IMG/VR virus record: IMGVR_UViG_3300012943_000036
Span: 1-59,873 of that record
Reading direction: 5' to 3' (one strand)
DNA: 59,873 nt
Source: a virus
Taxonomy: Duplodnaviria; Caudoviricetes
In this document: positions 2,480 to 59,873 of the stretch, piece by piece
How positions within the stretch are numbered: the stretch's first letter is position 1
Layout of the letters: each line of letters begins with the position of its first letter
Notes under the pieces: model-generated
What the model was told of the DNA's origin: nothing
Database searches by the model: none
Seen by the model: the letters and a program-made list of their open reading frames with translations, nothing else
Translations under genes and position numbers: made by a program

Positions 2480-3018
2480 TGCCTGAGGCTTACAAGCCTG
2501 GCCAGCGTCAAAGGAAGTATGGTCAGAACCATCAGATCAGTGAAGATCGTTACGCCTGGGTCGTGACCGACGCAGGCAAGTTCCTCATCTTAGTTGGGTC
2601 GGAAGGTAAGTCCGGGAGTGACGTAGTTCTGTTCGCTCCTCGACCAGGGAAGATTCTCGACTTCGCAATCAACCTCACCAACCTGACTGAACCCGAGCTG
2701 AGTGCTCTGGAAGAACTATTCAAGACGGCCTTCGAGTGGGCCCGACCCGTTGTAGTGCAACGAGACAAGGAAGCTGAACATGCTTGGAACGCTGGTGACG
2801 ACTCTTACACCCGCAGCTATCGAAGCCTTCCAACAGTGGTGTACCGGAAGAGGCCGGGCCCAGAACACGGTCAGGGCCTACGGGAGCGACTTGAGGGCCT
2901 TCCTGACGTCAGCGGAGGGTCAGGTGACGATGGAGGAGTTCGAGGAACTGGCGCAGAGCTGGTTGAACCTGACTCGGAACGTGGTGAGTCCGGCGACGAC
3001 AGCCCGACGTCTGACTAG
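2479..3018 (+). CDS. Hypothetical protein whose 3' end overlaps the recombinase gene
   Basis: TGATG coupling at 2477-2481; ORF stays open to 3018. Confidence 0.6.
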   Translation: MPEAYKPGQRQRKYGQNHQISEDRYAWVVTDAGKFLILVGSEGKSGSDVVLFAPRPGKILDFAINLTNLTEPELSALEELFKTAFEWARPVVVQRDKEAEHAWNAGDDSYTRSYRSLPTVVYRKRPGPEHGQGLRERLEGLPDVSGGSGDDGGVRGTGAELVEPDSERGESGDDSPTSD

Positions 3019-3607
3019 CCTCAAGAGCTTCGCCAAGTGGGCGAAGTGGGGCTCAGTCCTCGAGGAGTACATCGCCCCGAAGCCTGGCAAGACGGTGCCG
3101 CACCCGATCCCGGAAGGCGCGGACGGACTGCATCGCATGATCGAACAGTGCAAGAACTACCAGCAAGAGGCGCTCGTCGCCTTGGGCGGATTCGTCGGCT
3201 TGCGTGTGGGGGAGTCACTGTCCTTCACGACGCACATGCTCGACCTGGAGTCCATGCTGGCGACCATCCGAGGCAAGGGCGACAAGACTCGTGTAGTCCC
3301 AGTGTCCAGTCAAGCCTGGACGCTGATCGCCCCAGCTTACGCGATGGCGATGTCGAACGAGACGGGACACTTAATCACCTACAAGGATCGGTTCGCCCGT
3401 CAGATCATCACTAACCTCGGCGTCAAGGCCAAGCTCAAGCGTCATGTCAAGAGCCACGACCTACGCGCCACCTTCGCTACAGCAGCCTACGACAAGACCG
3501 GAGACATCAGGGTCGTCCAGGAGCTGCTTGGGCACAACTCGTCATCTACAACTGAGATCTACACCGGCGTCCGTCTTGAGACGCTGCGAGAGGCAGTGGA
3601 CTTCTGA
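2780..3607 (+). CDS. XerC/XerD-like tyrosine recombinase
   Basis: NTVRAY N-domain; catalytic set GLRVGE (R), GKGDKTR (K), HDLR (HxxR), LLGH (H), TTEIYT (Y); 275 aa with no arm-binding domain. Confidence 0.93.
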   Translation: MLGTLVTTLTPAAIEAFQQWCTGRGRAQNTVRAYGSDLRAFLTSAEGQVTMEEFEELAQSWLNLTRNVVSPATTARRLTSLKSFAKWAKWGSVLEEYIAPKPGKTVPHPIPEGADGLHRMIEQCKNYQQEALVALGGFVGLRVGESLSFTTHMLDLESMLATIRGKGDKTRVVPVSSQAWTLIAPAYAMAMSNETGHLITYKDRFARQIITNLGVKAKLKRHVKSHDLRATFATAAYDKTGDIRVVQELLGHNSSSTTEIYTGVRLETLREAVDF

Positions 3608-7128: not shown

Positions 7129-8054
7129 CAGTCAGTCGACTCGAAGGCCTCGAAACCGGACTTGATGAGTTCGGTATCGAGGACGCAGTCATTCCTCGCA
7201 TCACGATCGTTCACAAGGAGGGGCGGTTCAAGGACAGCCTTTCCAACCAGGAGTTCGAGTCCATCACCTGCATCATCCTCGGTCTGGTCAAGCAGCGCTC
7301 GCTGTGGCACCCGACTGTGGACGAAGGTGACTGGCCGATGTGCCGGTCGATGGATCACAACACCGGCTTCCCGAACTTGTCCGACGAGCAGCCGAAGGAG
7401 AAGCGCTTCGACCTTCTCTGGGACAAGGCTGGATTCGACCCCAAGGACTTCCCAGCCGGCGACGACGGCATGGTTCGCCTTCCCTGCGCATCATGCGGCC
7501 TCAAGGAGTGGGGCTCGCACCCCGACGGAAAGAAGCCCTACTGCAGCGAGCAGTTCACGCTGCCGATCCTGTACGACCCGGACGGCGACGGCATCTGGGT
7601 GCCAGCCATCGTCACGTTCCAGAAGACGGCCCTCAAGGGCCTCAAGGCGTACCTGTCCTCGTTCGCCCGTTCGAAGTCCGCGGCCTTCCAGGCCGTCACG
7701 GAGATCTCACTTCGGATGGAGAAGAAGGGTTCGACTGACTACTCGGTCCCCGAGTTCAAGAAGGTCGGGACCACCGAGGAGGAGAACTGGTTGGAGTACT
7801 CGACCAACTACCGCACGATGGCAAACTTCCTTCGAGCTGACCCGGGGAGCCGGGACGACAGCGAGAGCTCGGCTCCTGCCACCAAGGCTCCCGAGGCCAA
7901 GGAGGAGCCGAAGGCGGACGACAGCGACAGTGACGTTGTCGACGCCGAGGTGGTGGAGGACAGCGCGGACACCGCGAAGTCGGCTGACACCAGTAGCGAG
8001 AGCGCGCCCTCAAGCGACTCGGCTACCGAGGACGACGACGACCTGCCGTTCTGA
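7125..8054 (+). CDS. Putative ssDNA-binding/annealing protein
   Basis: Acidic tail ending DDDDLPF, four conserved-looking Cys, strong codon bias. Confidence 0.65.
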   Translation: MTVSRLEGLETGLDEFGIEDAVIPRITIVHKEGRFKDSLSNQEFESITCIILGLVKQRSLWHPTVDEGDWPMCRSMDHNTGFPNLSDEQPKEKRFDLLWDKAGFDPKDFPAGDDGMVRLPCASCGLKEWGSHPDGKKPYCSEQFTLPILYDPDGDGIWVPAIVTFQKTALKGLKAYLSSFARSKSAAFQAVTEISLRMEKKGSTDYSVPEFKKVGTTEEENWLEYSTNYRTMANFLRADPGSRDDSESSAPATKAPEAKEEPKADDSDSDVVDAEVVEDSADTAKSADTSSESAPSSDSATEDDDDLPF

Positions 8055-9483: not shown

Positions 9484-9784
9484 CGTTGAGCCGGAACACT
9501 TCCACGAGTTTCCTGACGACTGGATCTTTGCTGGCCCTCGTGGTACTGATTGGCGCGCTGATCCTCGCTGGAAGCCGTCGGTCTACATCTACCTCGACGA
9601 GAACCTTCGTACCGTATGGCAGACATCGGAGCCGAGGTGCCTCGATGATGCCATCAACAAGTTCTCAGCTCACCGCGCCTACAATCCGGCATACCTTCAA
9701 TGTGCGCCAGAGCGAGGCAACCTGGAACTGGTCCCCTTCAAGTACGACGCAAAGACAGACACGGTCTTTCCGCTGGAGGCATAG
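9464..9784 (+). CDS. Hypothetical protein
   Basis: GGGAGG RBS; overlaps neighbours. Confidence 0.55.
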   Translation: MIRMKCDVEPEHFHEFPDDWIFAGPRGTDWRADPRWKPSVYIYLDENLRTVWQTSEPRCLDDAINKFSAHRAYNPAYLQCAPERGNLELVPFKYDAKTDTVFPLEA

Positions 9785-11289
9785 TGAGTTTAGCCACCCG
9801 TAAGTCATTAGAGCCTTGGCTCTTTGACACGGTCGAGTACTACCCCCATCAGATAGAGGGGGTTCGCAAACTTGCCCGCATGCAGAACTTCCTACTGGCC
9901 GACGACATGGGCCTCGGGAAGTCTCTGCAGGCACTCACGGTTGCAACCATCGACGTCGTGAGGGGCTGGGCAGAACGTATCCTGATCGTGGCGCCCGTCT
10001 CATTGAAAGGTAACTGGGCTGATGAGATTGAGAAGTTCACTACTCTCCCGTACACAATCCTCGGTCAAGAAGTTCTACCTGGGCCTCACATCGGTTCACC
10101 AGACCGAATCAAAAAGCTCTCTCCTGCGGAACGTAGTCGCCAGCTTATCGGTTATGGTGTGGATACTGGCCCTCGTGTACTTATCGTCAACTACGAACAG
10201 GTAAAGCCTCACCTAGCCGAACTCAACGGGCTTGAGTTTGACATCGTCATCTATGACGAAGCTCACTACATGAAGAACTACAAGAGTCAGCGCACCAAGG
10301 CGTGTCTGGCTCTCGATGGCGGTCGTCACTTCCTGCTGACTGGAACGCCGATGCTCAACCACGTCAACGAGCTCTGGCCGCTACTCCGCAAGATCGCACC
10401 TGACGAGTACCCCAAGTACTGGACCTTCATCAACAGGTACGCGGTCTTCGGTGGCTACAAGAACAAGCAGATTGTCGGCGTGAAGAATGAGCGAGAGCTC
10501 ACCGACAGGCTTCAGTCCGTCATGGTTCGACGGATGAAGAAAGACGTTCTCGACCTTCCCGATGTTCAGATCATTCAGCGCAAAGTCGACTTGTCGTCCG
10601 AACAGCGTGTCATCTATGACAAGCTTATTGACGACTTGACCATCGACATGATCGGCCTTGACGATCCAGAGAAGGTCGAGAACGCTCTCACCAAGTTCCT
10701 ACGCCTCAAGCAGATCTGTGGAACGACGCTGCCGTTCAACGGGAAAGACATCTCGTCCAAGTTGGATCTAGTGATCGAAGATGGTCTAGAGATCCTAGAG
10801 CCTCGCAAGGAGGAGTTCGCTCGCAAGCTCGTAGTGTTCAGTCAGTTCCGGCCAGTGATCGAATGCATCTGCAGTCGGTTTGACGAGGCGGCGAAGTGGG
10901 TCGATATCTGGGAGATTCACGGAGACGTTCCCACCCATAGCCGTTCGGCTGTAGTCAAAGAGTGGGCAGATCACCCAGGACCCGGAGTCCTCGTGTGCAA
11001 TCCGATCGTGGCTGGTGTTGGACTCAATATGATAGCCTCGCGTCACGGATTCTTCGTTGATAAGTTGTTTGTGCCTGGGTTGAATCAGCAAGCCATCGAC
11101 CGCATGCACCGCATCGGGGCTGACTTGACGCAGCCAATTCAGATCACTGAGTACTTAGCACGAGGTACTATCGAGAGTCGTGTAGAGCAGATTCTGCGAA
11201 CAAAGAAGAAGCTCTTCGGCTCCATTGTCGATGTGTCTGACTTCAAGCGTCGGTTGATTCAGGCAATGATGGAGAAGGATGAAGAATGA
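9784..11289 (+). CDS. SNF2-family DNA helicase/translocase
   Basis: LADDMGLGKS (I), DEAH (II), LTGTP (III), VGLN (V), QAIDRMHRIG (VI); GTG 9784 with GGAGG. Confidence 0.93.
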   Translation: MSLATRKSLEPWLFDTVEYYPHQIEGVRKLARMQNFLLADDMGLGKSLQALTVATIDVVRGWAERILIVAPVSLKGNWADEIEKFTTLPYTILGQEVLPGPHIGSPDRIKKLSPAERSRQLIGYGVDTGPRVLIVNYEQVKPHLAELNGLEFDIVIYDEAHYMKNYKSQRTKACLALDGGRHFLLTGTPMLNHVNELWPLLRKIAPDEYPKYWTFINRYAVFGGYKNKQIVGVKNERELTDRLQSVMVRRMKKDVLDLPDVQIIQRKVDLSSEQRVIYDKLIDDLTIDMIGLDDPEKVENALTKFLRLKQICGTTLPFNGKDISSKLDLVIEDGLEILEPRKEEFARKLVVFSQFRPVIECICSRFDEAAKWVDIWEIHGDVPTHSRSAVVKEWADHPGPGVLVCNPIVAGVGLNMIASRHGFFVDKLFVPGLNQQAIDRMHRIGADLTQPIQITEYLARGTIESRVEQILRTKKKLFGSIVDVSDFKRRLIQAMMEKDEE

Positions 11290-15757: not shown

Positions 15758-16034
15758 CGCACGAACGGTTTACCGGAAGTGTCGCTTGCAAGATCCGCCA
15801 CGACGGCGTAAGCTCAAGCCTTGCGGTACCGAGGCTGCATATCGACGTCACCGCCGTAATGGCGAGTACCCATGCACAGCCTGCCTCGCAGCACACGTTG
15901 ACTACAACAGGAAGCCAAGTGACGAAACTCGTACATCAGATCTGGCAGGGGAAGTCCGAGGAGAAAGGACTGATCTTCCAGAACAAGAAGAACATCGCTG
16001 CGGTGATTACAGATCCGCCCTTCGGTGTGGATAA
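15654..16034 (+). CDS. HTH protein with CGT..AY.RH..GE.PC..C metal-binding motif
   Basis: GWSVADIAKKMGISARTVYR helix-turn-helix; overlaps both neighbours. Confidence 0.7.
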   Translation: MNLKPKLTSTEVATLLTLRSNGWSVADIAKKMGISARTVYRKCRLQDPPRRRKLKPCGTEAAYRRHRRNGEYPCTACLAAHVDYNRKPSDETRTSDLAGEVRGERTDLPEQEEHRCGDYRSALRCG

Positions 16035-16641
16035 TCAGTCCAACCAAGCGGTTACCGATCATGGCAAGAAGTACGCCCGCAAGATTGCCAATGACGAGAG
16101 CCCCGAGATAGCCATTGCTACCTTCAAGCGCGTCATGGACGTAATCCTCCCCGGCACAAGAGACGACGCTGACGCCTACGTGTTCACGTCTTACCAGGTG
16201 CTCTCCGACTGGCTCGTGATGACCGACCAGTACATGCCGAAGCACGGCTTCAAGCGCAAGGCCATTCTTGTCTGGGAGAAGGACGGCCCTGGCATGGGTG
16301 ACACTGAATGCCCCTGGGGTATGGGCTCGGAGTTCATCTTGTTCTTCCAGAAGGGTAGGCGAGAGAAGTCTGCCAAGCGTCGCAACTCAGTCATGCACTT
16401 CCCCCAACTCCGACCGAACGAGCTGATCCACCCGCATGAGAAGCCTGAGGGGCTTCTCCGAAAGCTCATCGAAGCCTCAACCGTAGAGGGTGACCTTGTC
16501 GTTGACCCGTTTGGTGGTTCTGGATCTCTTGTGCGTGCCGCTAGAGCTTGCGGGCGTTCTGCTGTGGCGATCGAGTACGATCAGGAGAATTACGATCTTG
16601 CGATTGAGAAGTTTCATGCAAAAGCGGAAGGACTGTTCTGA
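15919..16641 (+). CDS. N6-adenine/N4-cytosine DNA methyltransferase (beta class)
   Basis: TDPPF catalytic motif, HPHEKP, VDPFGGSGS SAM-binding motif. Confidence 0.92.
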   Translation: MTKLVHQIWQGKSEEKGLIFQNKKNIAAVITDPPFGVDNQSNQAVTDHGKKYARKIANDESPEIAIATFKRVMDVILPGTRDDADAYVFTSYQVLSDWLVMTDQYMPKHGFKRKAILVWEKDGPGMGDTECPWGMGSEFILFFQKGRREKSAKRRNSVMHFPQLRPNELIHPHEKPEGLLRKLIEASTVEGDLVVDPFGGSGSLVRAARACGRSAVAIEYDQENYDLAIEKFHAKAEGLF

Positions 16642-53373: not shown

Positions 53374-54279
53374 GTGGGAACCGGCAACCCAGCATACTCG
53401 ACTCCGGGGGATTCTTTGTCTCGTGAACTCGCAAAACAGTACGCCTCTCGCTTCATCTGCCGATCTGACGTCAAGGCTATCCAGCTTGATAGAGCAGGTG
53501 GAGGACTTGGTCCTGGGGACTGGTTTCCAGATACCCGAATCAACATCGAGCGACGACCCAATTCTCCTCATCTCCCTCTCGGCTTCTCGATGGACCATCT
53601 CCTTGCGCACATCGCCGGGGAACGAACTTATGGTCACTACCTCCTCTCGTCTGAGTCAGAAGCCAAGGTCTTCGTCTTTGACATCGACATCAGCACCCGA
53701 ATCAACCCCGACACAAAGAGCCCTGAAGGAACTTGGGTTGACTTTGAAACCGGAGAAGTTCACGATGGAGTCAACCCCCTCCTACTATGGGGTACACGGA
53801 CCAGGGAAGCTGCTCCCGCCAGAAACTGGCTCAAGTACCAGCTGAAGATGATTGGGCATCGGTTCGCCGATGAGATCCGAAAGATCGGCGTAGACTGCGC
53901 CGTCGCCTACTCGGGACACAAGGGCATCCATGTGTACGGCTTCACCGGTAAGATGCCGGCGTCAGAAGTCAGAGACGGTGCGATGCTGGTCCTCGACAGA
54001 ATGGGCGAGTTCGAGCCCTACCGTGGCCAGAACTTCTGGCGTCACAAGAATCCCGAGCCGGAACACGGCTTCCAGAACTTCTCCATCGAGGTCTTCCCAA
54101 AGCAGACCTCGCTCGGAGACGGCAAGAGCCTCGGCAACCTCGTGAGGCTACCTCTCGGAGTCAACCACAAGGCGCCTAAGGATCCCACGTTCTTCTTGGA
54201 CATGACGGCTCCACTTGCGCAGTTCACTCCTCACCCCGACCCGGTCGAACTGCTCAAGACAGGCAATCCCTTTGAATGA
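53374..54279 (+). CDS. Archaeo-eukaryotic primase (prim-pol) catalytic domain
   Basis: FDID, SGHKGIHVY, IEVFPKQ, GNLVRLPLG. Confidence 0.85.
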   Translation: MGTGNPAYSTPGDSLSRELAKQYASRFICRSDVKAIQLDRAGGGLGPGDWFPDTRINIERRPNSPHLPLGFSMDHLLAHIAGERTYGHYLLSSESEAKVFVFDIDISTRINPDTKSPEGTWVDFETGEVHDGVNPLLLWGTRTREAAPARNWLKYQLKMIGHRFADEIRKIGVDCAVAYSGHKGIHVYGFTGKMPASEVRDGAMLVLDRMGEFEPYRGQNFWRHKNPEPEHGFQNFSIEVFPKQTSLGDGKSLGNLVRLPLGVNHKAPKDPTFFLDMTAPLAQFTPHPDPVELLKTGNPFE

Positions 54280-54493
54280 CTTTGCTGATCACGAAGAGGA
54301 ACTCTTCCCGATCACAGACGAGGCTGACCTTCTCAAGAAGGTGCCGGAGCTTGTAGACAAGCCCAAGCCATTCCACCACCTCCATGAACTCTGGGACTTC
54401 TGGGACTTCCTGTCCAAAGGTCCTACCGAAACGACGATTCAGTGCCGCGACGCACTGACGCGCGATATCACTGAAATGGGGATCAGTGACTGA
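54272..54493 (+). CDS. Small hypothetical protein
   Basis: TTG 54272; fills the gap between primase and helicase. Confidence 0.5.
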   Translation: MNDFADHEEELFPITDEADLLKKVPELVDKPKPFHHLHELWDFWDFLSKGPTETTIQCRDALTRDITEMGISD

Positions 54494-56423
54494 CAAGCCC
54501 AAGTCCTTCTCTGAGATGAGGAAGGAGCTCGCAGCGTCTCGTGGAGAGACGCTAGAGACTCCACCTCAACTCAAGTCGGTCCCGAAGGTCGACGATGACC
54601 TGATTCCAGACGTGCTGTCTCACGACCGCACAGAAGAGGATATCGAGATTGACTCGATCGTCGAGCGCATCGACGTCCTCGACGCTTATCGGCGCTGGAT
54701 CGGCAAAGAGGTAGACGAGAAGACCGTATCACGCAAGGAAGGCGTGATGGTGTCTTGTCCGAACCCAGATCACCGCGACAAGCACCCGTCAGCCTGGATC
54801 AACACAGATAACCGAACGTGGTTCTGTGGCGGGTGCCAAGAAGGTGGCGATGTCTACGACCTGGCAGCCATCCACTTCAAGTACGACAGGCCCGGCTACA
54901 AGGACGGCGCGACCTTCCACCAACTCCGGAAGGAAATGGCCGAGGCTTACGGCTACAGGTTCAAGACCGTAGCCGGTAAGGAAATCATCTGGCGCGAGGA
55001 GGAATCACCCGCTTCGGGTGATGCGCTCACCGCCGATAATGTGCTGCTCGAGGAGCGGGAGCAAAAAGTCTCGGAAACGCCTCCTAAAACCCACGACAAG
55101 GTCACAGTCCTTCACGAGAAGGACGTAGAGGAATTAGCAGACGCAGCGATCTCGTATCCGATCCTGGATTGGAAGAAGATCGTACCTGAAGAAACCTTCC
55201 TGTACGAGTACATGGAAGCTTGCACCAATGATGATTCCCCCGAAGAGTATCACTTCTGGCACGGTTTACTGGCTCTCGGTCACGCAGTCGGAAGGAATGC
55301 TTACCTCAATGATACACGCCCTGTTTACGGCAATCTACTTGTATGTCTTCTTGGGGGTACTGGTTACGGCAAGTCTCGTAGCCGAGCTTGGCTCGACGAC
55401 GTTATTGAAGAGGCCTTGCCTTTCAGTGACACAGGACTGGATACTACTGGTACTAAGCTGGTACCTGTGCCGGCATCTGGTGAGAATCTGATTGCACAGT
55501 TCCAGCACATCGCGCATGACCCTAGCTTCCCCAAGGGCACACCCGAAGTCCGTACACCAGTGAACGGGATTGTTGACTATGACGAGTTCGCAGGACTCTT
55601 GCAACGTGCGAACCGACAGGGTAGCACCCTTAAGCAGATTGTCATGGGGTTCAGTGACGCTCGAAACAGAATCACCAGCAGTAGCAATACTGGCGGTACT
55701 TTTGAAGCGTATCGTCCCTTCTGCTCAATTACGGCTAGCACCCAGCCCAAGGCAGTCCGACCCCTTCTGTCACGCACCGACACGTCGTCAGGTTTCTTGA
55801 ACCGTTGGATATTCGTCGGTGGCCCCCGGAAAAAGAGGGAGGTCATGGGTGGCTCCCACAGCGTCATACGGGTAGACCTGGGCGCTGCAATCGAGCGGCT
55901 CAAGAAGGTCCGGGGATGGGGTGGCGTAGAGCGCGACGTCAGGTTCACAGAAGAAGGGATGGACGAGTTCGAGAGATTCATCCGAGCCCGAGTCTATCCA
56001 GTCCAAGAGACTGACGAAACCGACCTGCTTCAGAGGCTTGACCTCACAATGAAGCGGTTGGTGCTGCTGTTCTGCATCAACGAGAAGACGACCGAGGCGA
56101 CCGAAGATATCGTCAAGCGTGTCGAGCCAGTCCTGTCCTACATCATCGACAACTACGGGATCTTGAACGCCGAGATCGGTGTTACTCAGATGACTGAGAT
56201 CACCGACAATATCCTGGCGCAGATCGTGAAGATCGAACACAGCACCGGACGCGGAGCCTCGGCCCGCGAACTAGGCCAGAGACTGAAGAGAAAGAACTAC
56301 TCGCCAGACCTAATCAAGAGAGCGCTTGAGACGATGGTCGCTCTCGATTGGATCGACATTGAGAAGAAGAAGGCCGCAGGACCGGGCAGACCTACGATCC
56401 GGTATACGGCGGTGAACCAATGA
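54486..56423 (+). CDS. CHC2 zinc finger plus DUF3987-like P-loop helicase
   Basis: CP.PDH.D..PS..WFCGGC..GGD; GGTGYGKS, DEF, STQP, SGFLNR; winged-helix-like end. Confidence 0.85.
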   Translation: MTDKPKSFSEMRKELAASRGETLETPPQLKSVPKVDDDLIPDVLSHDRTEEDIEIDSIVERIDVLDAYRRWIGKEVDEKTVSRKEGVMVSCPNPDHRDKHPSAWINTDNRTWFCGGCQEGGDVYDLAAIHFKYDRPGYKDGATFHQLRKEMAEAYGYRFKTVAGKEIIWREEESPASGDALTADNVLLEEREQKVSETPPKTHDKVTVLHEKDVEELADAAISYPILDWKKIVPEETFLYEYMEACTNDDSPEEYHFWHGLLALGHAVGRNAYLNDTRPVYGNLLVCLLGGTGYGKSRSRAWLDDVIEEALPFSDTGLDTTGTKLVPVPASGENLIAQFQHIAHDPSFPKGTPEVRTPVNGIVDYDEFAGLLQRANRQGSTLKQIVMGFSDARNRITSSSNTGGTFEAYRPFCSITASTQPKAVRPLLSRTDTSSGFLNRWIFVGGPRKKREVMGGSHSVIRVDLGAAIERLKKVRGWGGVERDVRFTEEGMDEFERFIRARVYPVQETDETDLLQRLDLTMKRLVLLFCINEKTTEATEDIVKRVEPVLSYIIDNYGILNAEIGVTQMTEITDNILAQIVKIEHSTGRGASARELGQRLKRKNYSPDLIKRALETMVALDWIDIEKKKAAGPGRPTIRYTAVNQ

Positions 56424-56749: not shown

Positions 56750-56993
56750 CGTCCATAATCTGGTGGGTGTAGCACTTCCCGCTCTTGGAGTTGTGCAGAT
56801 CACAGTCGACCCACGGGACATGTACGCCTGAGAACGCGCCACGAGCTGGCACATAGAGGCGCATGAGCACCTGCTCCATATCCTCGGAGTTGGCGTAGCC
56901 CTCGCCAGGCTCGGCAACCTTGTTGCCGTTCTCGGCTACGACACCCCAGCGGTACTCGTGGTTATTGTCGGTGTACGTGTGAAGCGTATACAT
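56688..56993 (-). CDS. DUF1508/YegP-like protein
   Basis: YRW..VAENG..VA..EGY. Confidence 0.75.
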   Translation of the reverse strand: MYTLHTYTDNNHEYRWGVVAENGNKVAEPGEGYANSEDMEQVLMRLYVPARGAFSGVHVPWVDCDLHNSKSGKCYTHQIMDARTLAQSLRGDELAPSPHDP

Positions 56994-57787
56994 CAGTCTG
57001 CGAGCTCTCGGACCGAGTAGACACCGTGCAGGATGAAGTGGTCTGTGAACAGCTTATGCTTGCGGTCGTCCCAAACCTTGTACTCGAGTCCCTTGACGCG
57101 GTGGTCAGGGTCGAACGAACTGATGATGTCGAGCACCGTGCCACGGCTGGTGTTGATGCCGTGAGTTTTCGGGTGCTTGTTCAGCTCGTCGGCTAGGGTG
57201 GTGAGCGGCTTGCCCTGGAAGACGTCGATCTTGTCGTCGTGCTCGTTGGTGTCGGCGTTGTAGAAGACCAGCTTCTTGCCCGCACCGTGCTTGTGAGCCC
57301 ACTTGGCAACACCCTTGACCATCGGGTCGTTATCAGTCTTCGACGCCTGGATCGACCTTCCGGTGAGCCAGTGACCCGCTCCCACGGTGATCAGACCGAG
57401 GTTTGAGTCCTTGGAGACACCGCTCATCCAGGTCGTACCGCGCGGAGAATGCGCGCCCTGAGATGGCGAAAGACCGTGAGTGCCCTGAATGTACGGGCCG
57501 TCGTAGCCGTGCTCGAAGCCTCTGAGCATGTCTCCATTCATGGCGACCCAATCGCCGTACTGATGGAAGAAACCATGGAAGCCGTGCCTCTTGGCGCTCA
57601 ACATGAGCAGATCGCGCAGGTCGTGGTTGTCGGCACTGGCGCCCGACTCGGTGCCGGTGACGATCCAGGCGCCGGTGTCCACGGCGATGTCGAACACAGC
57701 CTCTGCGTCGTGCTTGTGATGGTCCTTGTTGTCTGAGAATTGCATCGAGTTGTGCTGGATGACTAGCTCTACAGTCTTGGCTGGCAT
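56993..57787 (-). CDS. Endonuclease/exonuclease/phosphatase (EEP) family protein
   Basis: HN, TGTE, ADTN, LDII, TDH catalytic pattern. Confidence 0.7.
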   Translation of the reverse strand: MPAKTVELVIQHNSMQFSDNKDHHKHDAEAVFDIAVDTGAWIVTGTESGASADNHDLRDLLMLSAKRHGFHGFFHQYGDWVAMNGDMLRGFEHGYDGPYIQGTHGLSPSQGAHSPRGTTWMSGVSKDSNLGLITVGAGHWLTGRSIQASKTDNDPMVKGVAKWAHKHGAGKKLVFYNADTNEHDDKIDVFQGKPLTTLADELNKHPKTHGINTSRGTVLDIISSFDPDHRVKGLEYKVWDDRKHKLFTDHFILHGVYSVRELAD

Positions 57788-58030
57788 CGTGGAGGTCTTT
57801 TCTTGAGAGAGTGGGCCGAGTTCTCAGGGTACGCTCTGCACCCCGATCCTGTCCAGTACCGCACTATATCGGCGCTCAGGGCGAGTCTAGAACAAGATTA
57901 CCCCAGTCAAGCACCAGCCGATATCGGCGCAGTATTGTCTGAGAAAGCACGTAGATTCCCACCAGAAGCGTGTGCAAACTGCTCTGTCAAGCGGTTATTG
58001 TTGCACAAACCAAAGATATTCCAGTCTTTT

Positions 58031-58628
58031 CGTAGACAAAACTGTCTACGAAATTCTGATCCCTAGACATATCCCATACTTTGGCCGCGATGGCGTCACC
58101 AGGCGCCGCGCAGACTGTGATCTTGAGGGAAAAGCCGGTTCGATGCCACCATACCAACCGCGCCACCCTAGCCACGCCAGTCACAGGGGTAACATCTTGT
58201 CCCAAAGTTTTGTATTAACCCAGATCTGAAAAAACGGGCAAGACCTGTCTACGAAATTCCGACATGTACCCTTTTCGTAGACGCGTGTCTACGAAAAGGT
58301 CACGTAATTGTCTACGTAATTCGACACGCGATGTGACCTGCATGTTCAACCGATTGGTTGTAGATGCGCTAGGCGGGGGCGGGCAATTACGTAGACACCC
58401 TGTACCCCCTAACACACAAAGACACCAGTCCTCATTGGTACAAACTGCAAGTCTAGACTCACGTCTGTCCGGCCATTGTCTAGGCTCGTCTTTGGTATAA
58501 CAAGATGCTCTCCGTAGGGGGGGCCTAGGGTGTCTACGAAACCCCTAGATCCACCCCTAAACCCCCTCTGACCTGCAAGGAAATACGTAGACAATTACGT
58601 AGACATTACGTAGACAATATCGTAGACA
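58031..58628. repeat. Twelve CGTAGAC/GTCTACG repeats (iteron-like)
   Basis: Seven forward and five reverse copies; four in tandem at 58586, 58598, 58609, 58621. Confidence 0.85.
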
Positions 58629-58824
58629 TATCACTCTCATTCTGTACACGAAATTCTGATGATCTAGTCCTATGGATGCAGTCACATCTTTGGTGTGGGA
58701 TGACCTTGGTAAAACTTTATGCGCACGCGATGGCCTCTAAGGCGAGCACGCACCACCCCCGTCGACTTTTTCTAGGGGGGGTGGGGTAGGGCATGCCGAA
58801 AGACGTGTAACAGACTAGACATAC

Positions 58825-58852
58825 TACGCCGATAATCGACATTATCGGTAGA
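58825..58852. other. Symmetric dif-like recombination site
   Basis: TACGCCGATAA-TCGACA-TTATCGGTAGA; 11-6-11 layout with inner ATAA/TTAT. Confidence 0.6.
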
Positions 58853-58888
58853 CATACTAGAAAGACGTGACATAGGTGCGCACCCCTA

Positions 58889-59298
58889 TGTCGACTTGTT
58901 TTATCGTCTTTCGGAATGCGTTTATCGGAATGCGTTTATTAGTAGGCGCGACCGATATCGAAAGAATGCGTTATCGGAATACACACAACTAGCGTTATGA
59001 AAGCCGTTATCAGAACACATTACCGATATGCGCCATAACACAATACAGAATGCAACGGATAGGGTTACGACTAACCGCATTCTGATTGCACCATATCCAT
59101 TGTCGACTTGTTTTATCGACTTATTCGATAACCCGTTTGTCAATCCCATGTCCACATATCGGACACTGGTCTAGACCAGTCCACATATCGGACACTAGAC
59201 ATTGACCTATTGTCGACTGTTTCACAAGACTAACGCGGATCACCCGATGCACGGTTTGTCAACCACATATAGATTCTCACGAAACTGGTCTAGACCAG
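58889..59298. repeat. Cluster of short direct repeats and palindromes
   Basis: TGTCGACTTGTTTTATCG x2 (58889, 59101), CGGAATGCGTTTAT tandem x2, GTCCACATATCGGACACT x2, CTGGTCTAGACCAG x2. Confidence 0.8.
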
Positions 59299-59397
59299 CC
59301 CCGATTCCGACCTATAGGCACCGACTTTTGGGTACGATGTCCGTAGGGCATCGCGCCCACCGGGCCACCGGCCCGGCCACTAGATAGGATCCGACTC

Positions 59398-59873
59398 ATG
59401 ATCGACTACACCGCAATCGACACCACCGCAACAACCGCCGCCTACCGTGCGGCCGACGCGTCCGAAAAGGCACGCATGCGGGCCGCCGCATCGGACGCCA
59501 TCACAACCGCCGTGTCGTCGGGTGACATCGCCGCCGCGCAATCGGCGGTTGCGCACCGCGACGCGATGACCGTTGACCGAAAGTCGACCACCGAGGTCGA
59601 CTATGCCGCACGCATCGCCGACCATGCCGCAACGTTGTACGCCGCCTATGCCGCGATTCTGTCGGGCGCCTACGTGTTGCCCGACGGTGTGTCCGTCGAC
59701 GTCGACACGATCGACTTTGCGGCCGGTTCGCCCGATTCCGCGGCCGTGACGCGGTTGTCGGCCGTGTCCGGCCGGAAAGTCGGACGCGGGTGCGTGTCCG
59801 ACTACATCGCGTCGGTGGTGTCCGATGACCCGATGACCATTGCGGGCATGCGCGCCGCATGGGTCGCGTCGGA
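59398..59873 (+). CDS. Ala/Asp-rich hypothetical protein, truncated by window end (not in ORF track)
   Basis: ATG 59398 with AGGA upstream; open to the end: MIDYTAIDTTATTAAYRAAD. Confidence 0.75.
   Translation, partial: MIDYTAIDTTATTAAYRAADASEKARMRAAASDAITTAVSSGDIAAAQSAVAHRDAMTVDRKSTTEVDYAARIADHAATLYAAYAAILSGAYVLPDGVSVDVDTIDFAAGSPDSAAVTRLSAVSGRKVGRGCVSDYIASVVSDDPMTIAGMRAAWVAS

Follow-up and report, generated by a model that had tools for sequence, protein, structure and literature searches.

The terminal 1,104 nt (58770-59873) of the DNA analysed here, a 59,873-bp stretch that makes up a whole IMG/VR virus record and that we call the window, raise the question of why a phage genome should all but give up, over one short segment, the AG and CT steps that are common in the rest of it. 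The segment holds non-coding DNA followed by the first codons of a gene that starts at 59398, hereafter the 59398 gene. We found that the word removed is AG not preceded by T and, on the other strand, CT not followed by A (VAG/CTB), with TAG/CTA being exempt. We read the segment as the visible part of a VAG-free leader lying just inside the right genome end of a soil actinophage resembling Montyvirus and Getseptimavirus, comprising about 630 bp of control DNA and the first early gene. Purged zones of the same kind recur at the same place in related phages, and they go together with a phage DNA methyltransferase that probably acts on the same word.

A first-pass annotation of this DNA had described an abrupt switch at 58770 to sequence poor in AG/CT. 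Its counts for the segment were reproduced, namely three GAG/CTC (one GAG and two CTC) and no GCT, GAAG or CTTC, as were those for the open reading frame (ORF) at 59398-59873 (four AG and eight CT); its comparison stretch at 7141-7260 turned out to hold seven GAG/CTC (five and two), not about eight. AGC occurs three times in the segment. In all, AG occurs 32 times and CT 33 times, where the remainder of the window would have about 80 and 70 over the same length; their sum of 65 compares with 149.5 +/- 9.2 (minimum 114) in other segments of that length (z about -9), and the ORF has 12 AG+CT vs. 64.4 +/- 5.7 (minimum 45) in all 476-nt segments of 1-57800. The depletion persists after correction for base composition, with an AG/CT observed/expected ratio (O/E) of 0.23 in the ORF, 0.68 in the non-coding DNA at 58761-59397, where the remaining AG is mostly TAG, and 0.48 overall, vs. 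1.11 in the rest; CG, AC/GT and AT are raised on the same corrected scale. Within the ORF, the GC content is 68% vs. 57% for the genome, the shortage of AG and of CT extends to all three codon phases, and the codon bias was confirmed: 17 Asp and 2 Glu, Leu as TTG three times and CTG once, and Ser as TCG (10) and TCC (6) with no other codon. Scored as VAG+CTB O/E in 1-kb windows, the statistic that we applied uniformly to all genomes below (genome medians 0.92-1.30), the window has its minimum of 0.28 at 58751 against a median of 1.27, and the 4 of 236 1-kb windows that fall below 0.6 times the median are all at this end. Thus stated, the compositional change is real, but it is gradual between about 58,100 and 58,900 rather than abrupt.

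The purged word could be defined by pooling 17.5 kb of depleted zones from 7 phages, in which all 12 VAGN words stand at 0.21-0.54 of their genome density, the TAGN words at 1.4-3.6, and CTAG at 3.85. The trinucleotide tables of the window and of Gordonia phage PokyPuppy are concordant, and in PokyPuppy 75,251-75,750, 38 of 41 AG/CT are TAG/CTA, leaving 3 VAG/CTB. The early genes 97-105 of PokyPuppy, compared with its other genes, favor GAA (70% vs. 22%), AAA (67% vs. 8%), CAA (47% vs. 10%) and CTA (18% vs. 5%), shun CCT (3% vs. 14%), ACT (2% vs. 14%) and CTT (2% vs. 10%), and encode less Lys (2.1% vs. 5.2%) and more Arg (8.9% vs. 5.7%). Accordingly, the purge runs on both strands and irrespective of codon phase, in non-coding DNA as well as in genes, where it works through synonymous codons (GAA/AAA/CAA, TTG, no NCT) and through replacement of Lys by Arg and Glu by Asp. 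VAG/CTB has been removed by nucleotide-level selection acting on the DNA and not by codon adaptation or decay, because the GC content goes up and purine words that lack an AG step are hardly touched. The earlier proposal that this region is under selection to lack a motif is thus borne out by the compositional depletion, by the involvement of all codon phases and by the codon and amino-acid shifts in PokyPuppy. A reading in terms of polypurine tracts or Z-DNA was rejected, given that GA/TC is hardly depleted (0.79-0.88 of genome level) and that GGGA (0.73) and GGAA (0.75), which have no AG step, contrast with AGGA, GAAG and AGAG (0.20-0.28); decay by deamination was rejected as well, GC being up and AA/TT not enriched.

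Where this segment lies in the genome could be deduced by comparison with cultured phages. The IMG/VR record is classed as linear with a CheckV completeness of 76%, and the window is an incomplete contig, as judged by its gene content, of an actinophage distantly related to the Gordonia phages PokyPuppy and GTE7 and to Tsukamurella phage TIN2: its portal is 46% identical to those of the Gordonia phage genus Montyvirus (PokyPuppy, 77,065 bp), GTE7 and TIN2. Read in reverse, the window is collinear with the left arm of PokyPuppy through the portal, the terminase, a 448-residue terminase-small-like gene, an AEP primase and a 645-residue helicase-like gene, and its first 20 kb match the middle of the PokyPuppy right arm. 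About 17 kb of the right arm are absent between window 59873 and position 1, the matching interval in a complete IMG/VR relative (G003; the G and L numbers are our handles) being 48.1-65.5 kb, so that the contig, but not the genome, ends at 59873. In PokyPuppy, the direct terminal repeat measures 192 bp, the left and right ends are non-coding for 928 bp and 1.8 kb, respectively, and the right-arm genes all point inward from the right end. We infer that the gene-free 1.6 kb at 57,788-59,397 of the window corresponds to the two non-coding ends of the PokyPuppy type joined together. The physical ends would meet near 58,770, because one family of repeats (TGTCTACGAAATT) occupies 58,026-58,660 and a different set 58,761-59,330, because composition shifts between the two sets, and because the distance from portal start to left end in PokyPuppy (9,058 nt) projects onto window 58,766; a terminal repeat would lie nearby. 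With the ends so placed by synteny, the depleted segment would be right-end control DNA plus the first early gene. The claim that the segment sits at a genome end at 59873 is therefore not upheld, the probable physical end being at its start; what stands is its position beside an end, which is the right end, as known for PokyPuppy and as judged by synteny for the window.

The first-pass annotation had suggested looking for the depletion in related phages, and it recurs there at the same place, beside the joined ends. The 1-kb minima of VAG+CTB O/E are 0.28 in the window, 0.16 in PokyPuppy, 0.09 in GTE7, 0.35 in TIN2, 0.39 in GalacticEye and 0.33 in Benczkowski14, and among the metagenomic records 0.58 in G001, 0.46 in G002, 0.46 in G003, 0.01 in G004, 0.35 in G005, 0.15 in G006, 0.33 in G008 and 0.42 in L013. 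The complete relatives examined have at most one zone each, 1-10 kb long, which adjoins the joined ends and peaks at the first early genes, with a single such zone per genome in G003, G005, TIN2, GTE7 and the Rhodococcus phage Mbo2 (ON191531.1). The zone in Mbo2 (66,251-76,500; O/E 0.38-0.75) is the largest seen, at about 10 kb, and contains ORFs of 802 and 593 residues without a Pfam match, while the most extreme relative is G004 (L019), a 14.9-kb fragment with the O/E of 0.01 at about 9,500-10,500. In PokyPuppy, the zone comprises the last 4.6 kb (72.4-77 kb; genes 97-105 and the right non-coding end; AG/CT O/E 0.46-0.72), beginning at the gap between genes 96 and 97, and the VAG/CTB count per 250 nt drops from 18 to 0 toward the first gene and its 500 nt upstream; a similar gradient in GTE7 takes O/E from 0.72 to 0.10. 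No zone was found in G010 or GordDuk1, Orchid has one marginal window and G007 two windows at a contig end; among the fragments, G009 has no zone in the 22 kb examined and L011 stops short of the joined ends. In the closest IMG/VR relative, G001, the homologue of the 59398 gene is hardly purged (O/E 0.80 in its last 500 nt), which shows that the reach of the purge varies rapidly among close relatives. As a separate observation, PokyPuppy gene 96 (71,353-72,315), just inside the zone boundary, encodes an acidic protein of about 310 residues, and genes of like length, compared by length only, occupy the corresponding position in GalacticEye, Benczkowski14, TIN2 and GTE7; in the window, this position falls within the absent 17 kb.

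Outside the depleted segment, at 15859-16641, the window encodes a DNA methyltransferase that matches PF01555 (N6_N4_Mtase) with 81.9 bits vs. a curated cut-off of 26.7. The enzyme is 60-72% identical across the zone-bearing relatives and 63-64% identical to PokyPuppy gp45, and it is the best conserved of 18 proteins compared with G003 and G005 (69% and 67% identical). Among solved structures, the nearest is that of M1.HpyAVI (PDB 5HEK and 5HFJ; E = 1e-10 to 5HEK over the full length, with residues 40-251 aligned to 17-228), a promiscuous N6-adenine methyltransferase of the beta class from Helicobacter pylori, and its best solved relatives are the adenine methylases M1.HpyAVI, MboIIA and CcrM, in a family that includes N4-cytosine methylases as well. 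The accessible text of PMC5173035 reports that M1.HpyAVI methylates adenines in GAGG, GGAG and GAAG. The likeness thus lies in the nearest solved relative having short AG target words; on the other hand, that relative is distant, its specificity is not transferable, and, unlike the orphan phage enzyme, it serves a cellular Type II system.

With regard to the METHYLTRANSFERASE link, every zone-bearing record in which the enzyme could be looked for, 11 in all, has a homologue of at least 60% identity (we call these records carriers). Orchid, GordDuk1, G010 and Mbo2 have none, and the copy in G007 is divergent (44% identical). A zone is thus found in 11/11 carriers vs. 1/5 non-carriers (Fisher p = 0.003, uncorrected for relatedness), and in a 17-row TerL tree the joint lack of enzyme and zone falls in at least three places, as exemplified by: 1) GordDuk1 with Orchid; 2) G010, which is sister to G006; and 3) G007.

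The enzyme and the purged word are also connected through restriction-type palindromes, for which we compared the six VAG-containing 6-bp palindromes with the 52 others in 6 carrier and 5 non-carrier genomes. The pooled O/E of the VAG palindromes is 0.93 in the carriers, where the 52 others have 0.67, and 0.49 in the non-carriers. For CTGCAG, observed/expected counts are 0/25 in GordDuk1, 0/28 in Orchid, 0/17 in Mbo2, 0/17 in G007 and 42/47 in G010; in the same order, they are 0/20, 0/9, 1/36, 26/37 and 21/32 for GAGCTC, 2/16, 4/8, 1/39, 0/9 and 23/31 for CAGCTG, and 1/35, 52/61, 0/8, 1/20 and 0/13 for AAGCTT. Carriers, in other words, tolerate sites of the PstI, SacI, PvuII, HindIII and XhoI types that most non-carriers have purged genome-wide, with G010, which lacks AAGCTT only, as the exception among the latter. 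Among the carriers, PokyPuppy for instance has 47 CTGCAG. The nearly complete site loss in GordDuk1, Orchid, Mbo2 and G007 is a textbook mark of restriction avoidance and points to such specificities in their hosts. The purged word, the tolerated palindromes and the nearest characterized enzyme agree on one and the same word. In the simplest reading, the phage enzyme methylates the adenine of VAG and thereby shields such sites, a specificity that we deduce from composition. The first-pass suggestion that the motif may be the site of a phage DNA modification thus gains indirect support from the association with the methyltransferase and from the palindrome statistics. Apart from this, CCATGG, GCCGGC, GGGCCC, CCGCGG and ATCGAT are avoided in carriers and non-carriers alike (11 genomes; O/E 0.08-0.45), and GTCGAC is frequent in the window leader and not avoided in carriers (O/E 0.88).

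Taking these findings together, we consider the chances roughly even that the enzyme methylates VAG and that the leader is an unmethylatable, site-free, first-entering segment which evades host nucleases. We surmise that the enzyme would write N6-methyladenine on VAG genome-wide, shielding the DNA from host enzymes resembling PstI, SacI, PvuII, HindIII and XhoI, and that the leader would be the one segment bearing neither the mark nor the sites. Entering and being expressed first, such a leader would offer no target to methyl-sensitive or to methyl-dependent nucleases (Type IV, Mrr-like) until the early proteins act, and the TAG-only repeats in the control DNA would follow from the same rule. 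A broader version of this proposal, which we put forward tentatively and regard as doubtful, is that an orphan promiscuous adenine methyltransferase marks nearly every VAG, about one per 12 bp, as a shield against many host systems at once, and that the price is a graded blank leader at the entering end, free of sites and marks, resulting in a two-part epigenetic chromosome with its boundary written into codon and amino-acid usage.

Several points weigh against the proposal that VAG is methylated by the phage enzyme and blanked out of the leader. The VAG specificity of the enzyme is deduced and the first entry of the leader end is assumed, and the termini of the window were placed by synteny, not by mapping. 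The contrast between carriers and non-carriers comes from 16 genomes, and the zone calls are based on 16 kb each in GalacticEye and Benczkowski14 and on 22 kb each in G006 and G008. Mbo2, with the largest zone, has no PF01555 gene, and a scan of 50 of its 52 right-arm ORFs, all but two that straddle locus borders, detected no methyltransferase domain; a zone can therefore exist without this enzyme. Conversely, a clear leader zone is missing from G007, in spite of its divergent enzyme and its tolerance of GAGCTC and CTCGAG. The terminal 1.3 kb of PokyPuppy are less thoroughly purged than its first genes. Finally, if virion DNA were fully methylated, classical restriction would give no reason for a site-free leader, and the argument from Type IV nucleases would have to carry that part.

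Among the other explanations, motif avoidance of the classical kind, in which the phage methyltransferase plays no part, is possible but in our estimate rather unlikely. It holds that hosts read VAG sites through Type I, III, IIL or BREX PglX-type systems or through the PAMs (protospacer-adjacent motifs) of I-E CRISPR systems (AAG, GAG, AGG), the latter at a spacer-acquisition hotspot formed by the free end, and that sites cease to matter once early anti-defence proteins have been made. Many sites of BREX systems and of the MmeI family do end in VAG, the zone is graded and adjoins the end, and Mbo2 maintains its 10-kb zone without the enzyme. The leading region of Murciavirus and the first-step-transfer (FST) DNA of phage T5, which we come to below, provide precedents in print, and the accessible text of PMC12455610 adds that on plasmids CRISPR spacers are taken up preferentially from leading regions. 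What such avoidance leaves unexplained is the presence of a zone in 11/11 carriers and its absence from 4/5 non-carriers at no fewer than three positions of the tree; VAG sites would moreover be masked already if the enzyme methylates them, and the exemption of TAG mismatches the type I-E PAM set of E. coli. A comparison of the right 20 kb of PokyPuppy with 401 genomes of the family of a Nocardia genome (2 candidates scored per genome) returned 12 matches, 39-149 nt long and 69-90% identical, of which 11 fall within the 1.3 kb that precede the zone (gene 96 with its neighbors upstream); these are not usable as spacer evidence. We think it unlikely that the leader serves regulatory insulation, whereby early promoters, operators and the transcription unit would work alike on parental, hemimethylated and unmethylated DNA and hence use TAG-only binding sites. 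That idea accords with the TAG-exclusive repeat motifs of the control DNA, with a purge that peaks at the first gene and about 500 nt upstream and not at the very end, with a first gene product that is predicted to be a winged-helix DNA binder, and with the linkage of zone and enzyme, but promoter or operator function does not require a purge that spans 2.8-10 kb of coding sequence at a cost in amino acids, the Mbo2 exception applies here too, and adenine methylation is not known to hinder elongation.

More doubtful still is self-protection from an early low-specificity nuclease of the phage's own, one that cuts VAG-like words and would break down the host DNA at the stage when no more than the leader has entered, an action proposed for T5 A1. 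So short and degenerate a word would suit such an enzyme, the zones contain large ORFs to which no function is assigned (those of 802 and 593 residues in Mbo2), and an analogous hypothesis for T5 FST DNA appears in the accessible part of bioRxiv 10.1101/866236; against this, no nuclease domain was seen in the zone genes scanned, two-step injection has no support in these siphophages, and the palindrome pattern would go unexplained. We regard as very improbable that the segment is an artefact or foreign DNA, be it a chimeric metagenome join, a recent import of foreign composition or a footprint of deamination. Its place at a contig end, the jump in GC and the failure of DNA and protein searches of the segment to match anything in a phage collection would fit such an origin. 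A chimeric join or import, which the first-pass annotation had named among the outcomes that would undo its case, is contradicted by a second assembly (Logan, run X1, possibly the sample of origin), colinear with the window over 57000-59850 with 0 differences, and by homologues of the 59398 gene that lie inside the zone and at the same place in 5/5 related records searched; the same signature also marks the non-homologous early genes of PokyPuppy, GTE7 and Mbo2, and the base changes run contrary to C-to-T decay.

The 59398 gene had been put forward as a candidate anti-defence gene, a suggestion not favored by our analysis, in which the protein has no similarity to known anti-defence proteins and is predicted to combine a helical domain with a winged helix. 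The part in the window is 158 codons long vs. 196-210 residues in full-length homologues. Four metagenome homologues share 56-76% identity with it and 132 cluster representatives were retrieved at E <= 0.001; no Pfam, PHROG or NCBIfam match was found for the family, nor for any of 89 family members. We sought the loci of homologues P0001-P0004 in viral, metagenome and genome contig collections, and none was confirmed. An AlphaFold2 (AF2) model of the close homologue P0001, built from an alignment of 89 sequences (pLDDT 91.9), has a helical domain at the N-terminus and, at the C-terminus, a winged helix in which residues 125-196 are arranged as H-H-H-beta-beta; the ORF in the window ends before the recognition helix and wing. 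VIA-align gave middling Z scores of 5.5-6.8 between this model and Zur, MarR, PadR, ArsR, forkhead and Z-alpha domains, and a Foldseek search against the PDB yielded no match with E below 0.8. Ocr and ArdA were not among the listed structure matches of the model, which does not exclude them, and the window protein is mildly acidic (D17+E2 vs. K3+R10 in 158 residues). In G003 and G005, the homologue is the sole sizeable gene in the zone, with TAG-rich non-coding DNA on both sides. Based on the predicted fold, the product is more likely to be an early DNA-binding regulator than a known anti-defence protein.

The non-coding DNA on either side of the inferred joint carries its own repeats (Table 1). 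The left-end-type part starts after the last left-arm ORF (56993-57787, minus strand), runs to the joint and is moderately low in VAG/CTB, with 13-17 per 250 nt vs. 26-29 in genes. It contains an array of a 13-nt motif, four copies of which stand in tandem at 11-12 nt spacing, and every AG in the motif is part of TAG; a block at 58531-58628 is 82% identical to G001, while the surrounding non-coding DNA is not alignable. The TGTCTACGAAATT array may be a candidate binding array for packaging or for a regulator. A G/C-rich inverted repeat (CCACCCCC ... GGGGGGGTGG) sits where repeat families and composition switch, and the right-end-type DNA beyond it contains GTCGACTTGTTTTA five times, CGTTTATCGGAATG, GTCCACATATCGGACACT twice and the palindrome CTGGTCTAGACCAG twice. 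Promoter and terminator scans gave counts not above those of shuffles, and an Rfam scan gave a single sub-threshold match (rpsL_pseudo, 24.3 bits vs. a gathering score of 70).

Table 1. Coordinates of the features discussed, in positions of the window.
Feature	Coordinates	Strand	Evidence
Left-end-type non-coding control DNA (putative)	57788..58760		ORF list, repeat families, profile, synteny with the PokyPuppy 928-bp left end
Array of a 13-nt motif (TGTCTACGAAATT / AATTACGTAGACA), at least 13 copies, both orientations	58026..58660		Repeat families, blastn
G/C-rich inverted repeat (CCACCCCC ... GGGGGGGTGG), inferred joint of left and right ends	58750..58790, approximate		Sequence, repeat partition, PokyPuppy distance
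Right-end-type non-coding control DNA upstream of the first early gene (putative)	58761..59397		Repeat families, composition, profile
First right-arm (early) gene, 5' 158 codons, cut by the contig end	59398..59873	+	ORF list, homologues
VAG/CTB-depleted leader, part visible in the contig	58770..59873		Counts, 1-kb windows; inner boundary beyond the contig
Conserved phage DNA methyltransferase (Pfam N6_N4_Mtase, beta class)	15859..16641	+	Profile match, homologues; outside the depleted segment

As to the contig end itself, the window at 59873 and G001 at position 1 (= L010 15561), which are independent IMG/VR contigs, end at the identical homologous nucleotide, two bases into the codon after ...WVAS / ...WVPTA and about 10 codons before a conserved PSxGAIGA helix; the helicase-like proteins of the two are 70% identical. 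The Logan contig of run X1 stops 23 nt earlier, at a depth of 9 and with no loose end. The shared stop may possibly reflect a drop of coverage in GC-rich DNA, a branch point between co-occurring variants or a real DNA end. A circular continuation of the 59398 ORF into position 1 was rejected, the 16 added codons being unlike the conserved C-terminus of the family. Elsewhere in the window, a XerC/XerD-like tyrosine recombinase (2780-3607, plus strand; Pfam Phage_integrase, NCBIfam XerC/XerA-like) is encoded by the right arm of this phage, which otherwise looks lytic, and is kept in G003 and G005 (48-51% identical), and Mbo2 also has an ORF of the Phage_integrase family by Pfam match. The AEP-type primase (53374-54279, plus strand) matches the Pfam "TOTE conflict system AEP domain" with E = 7e-13, and the adjoining 645-residue protein (54486-56423, plus strand) combines a DnaG-type CHC2 zinc ribbon with DUF3987.

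The depletion of defence targets from DNA that enters first is already known for single restriction sites, in T5, in Murciavirus and in the leading regions of plasmids. The plasmid case follows the same logic but involves entry as a single strand and the R-M motifs of known systems. In T5, according to the accessible part of bioRxiv 10.1101/866236, EcoRI sites are cleaved in FST DNA and insensitive elsewhere, and CRISPR targeting is effective only in FST DNA. The FST segments of T5 and BF23, as far as described there, resemble the zone in being leading segments at a genome end with the first-expressed genes, in which (for T5) restriction sites matter. The T5 segment differs in being part of a terminal repeat of about 10 kb and delimited by an injection stop signal, whereas the terminal repeat of PokyPuppy is 192 bp and its zone (72.4-76.9 kb) lies outside the repeat and is not repeated at the left end; furthermore, a whole 3-nt word is purged here and not a 6-bp site. 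No A1, A2 or dmp homologues were found in a scan of the 59398 gene and 89 members of its family. For Murciavirus (Autographiviridae), the accessible text of PMC12455610 states that Type I restriction depends solely on the motifs in the region injected first, so that a phage whose leading region lacks the motif escapes even with copies elsewhere in its genome, and that this region varies and is presumed to carry anti-defence functions. As in our phages, the motif is rare in the leading region and present elsewhere (compare the last kilobase of the window with its median; 11 related records behave alike, with minima of 0.09-0.58). The Murciavirus case, however, concerns one bipartite Type I motif with few sites, was shown experimentally and, in that text, has no link to a phage methyltransferase, whereas ours is compositional and concerns a 3-nt word whose removal has rewritten codon and amino-acid usage over 1-10 kb. 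Our literature search found no description of such a VAG-free leader.

What appears new is the removal of a three-letter word over kilobases, with altered protein composition, and its co-variation with the phage's own methyltransferase of likely the same target, in a leader that recurs across several genera of Gordonia, Tsukamurella and Rhodococcus phages. The cultured relatives, including PokyPuppy, GTE7, TIN2 and many SEA-PHAGES isolates, make direct testing possible. If the link between leader and enzyme is true, the specificity of an orphan phage methyltransferase would be computable from the purged word together with the tolerated palindromes, the zone would serve as a marker of the entering end and of the immediate-early unit in uncultured phage genomes, and these phages would allow the trade-off between self-methylation and methylation-dependent restriction to be put to the test.

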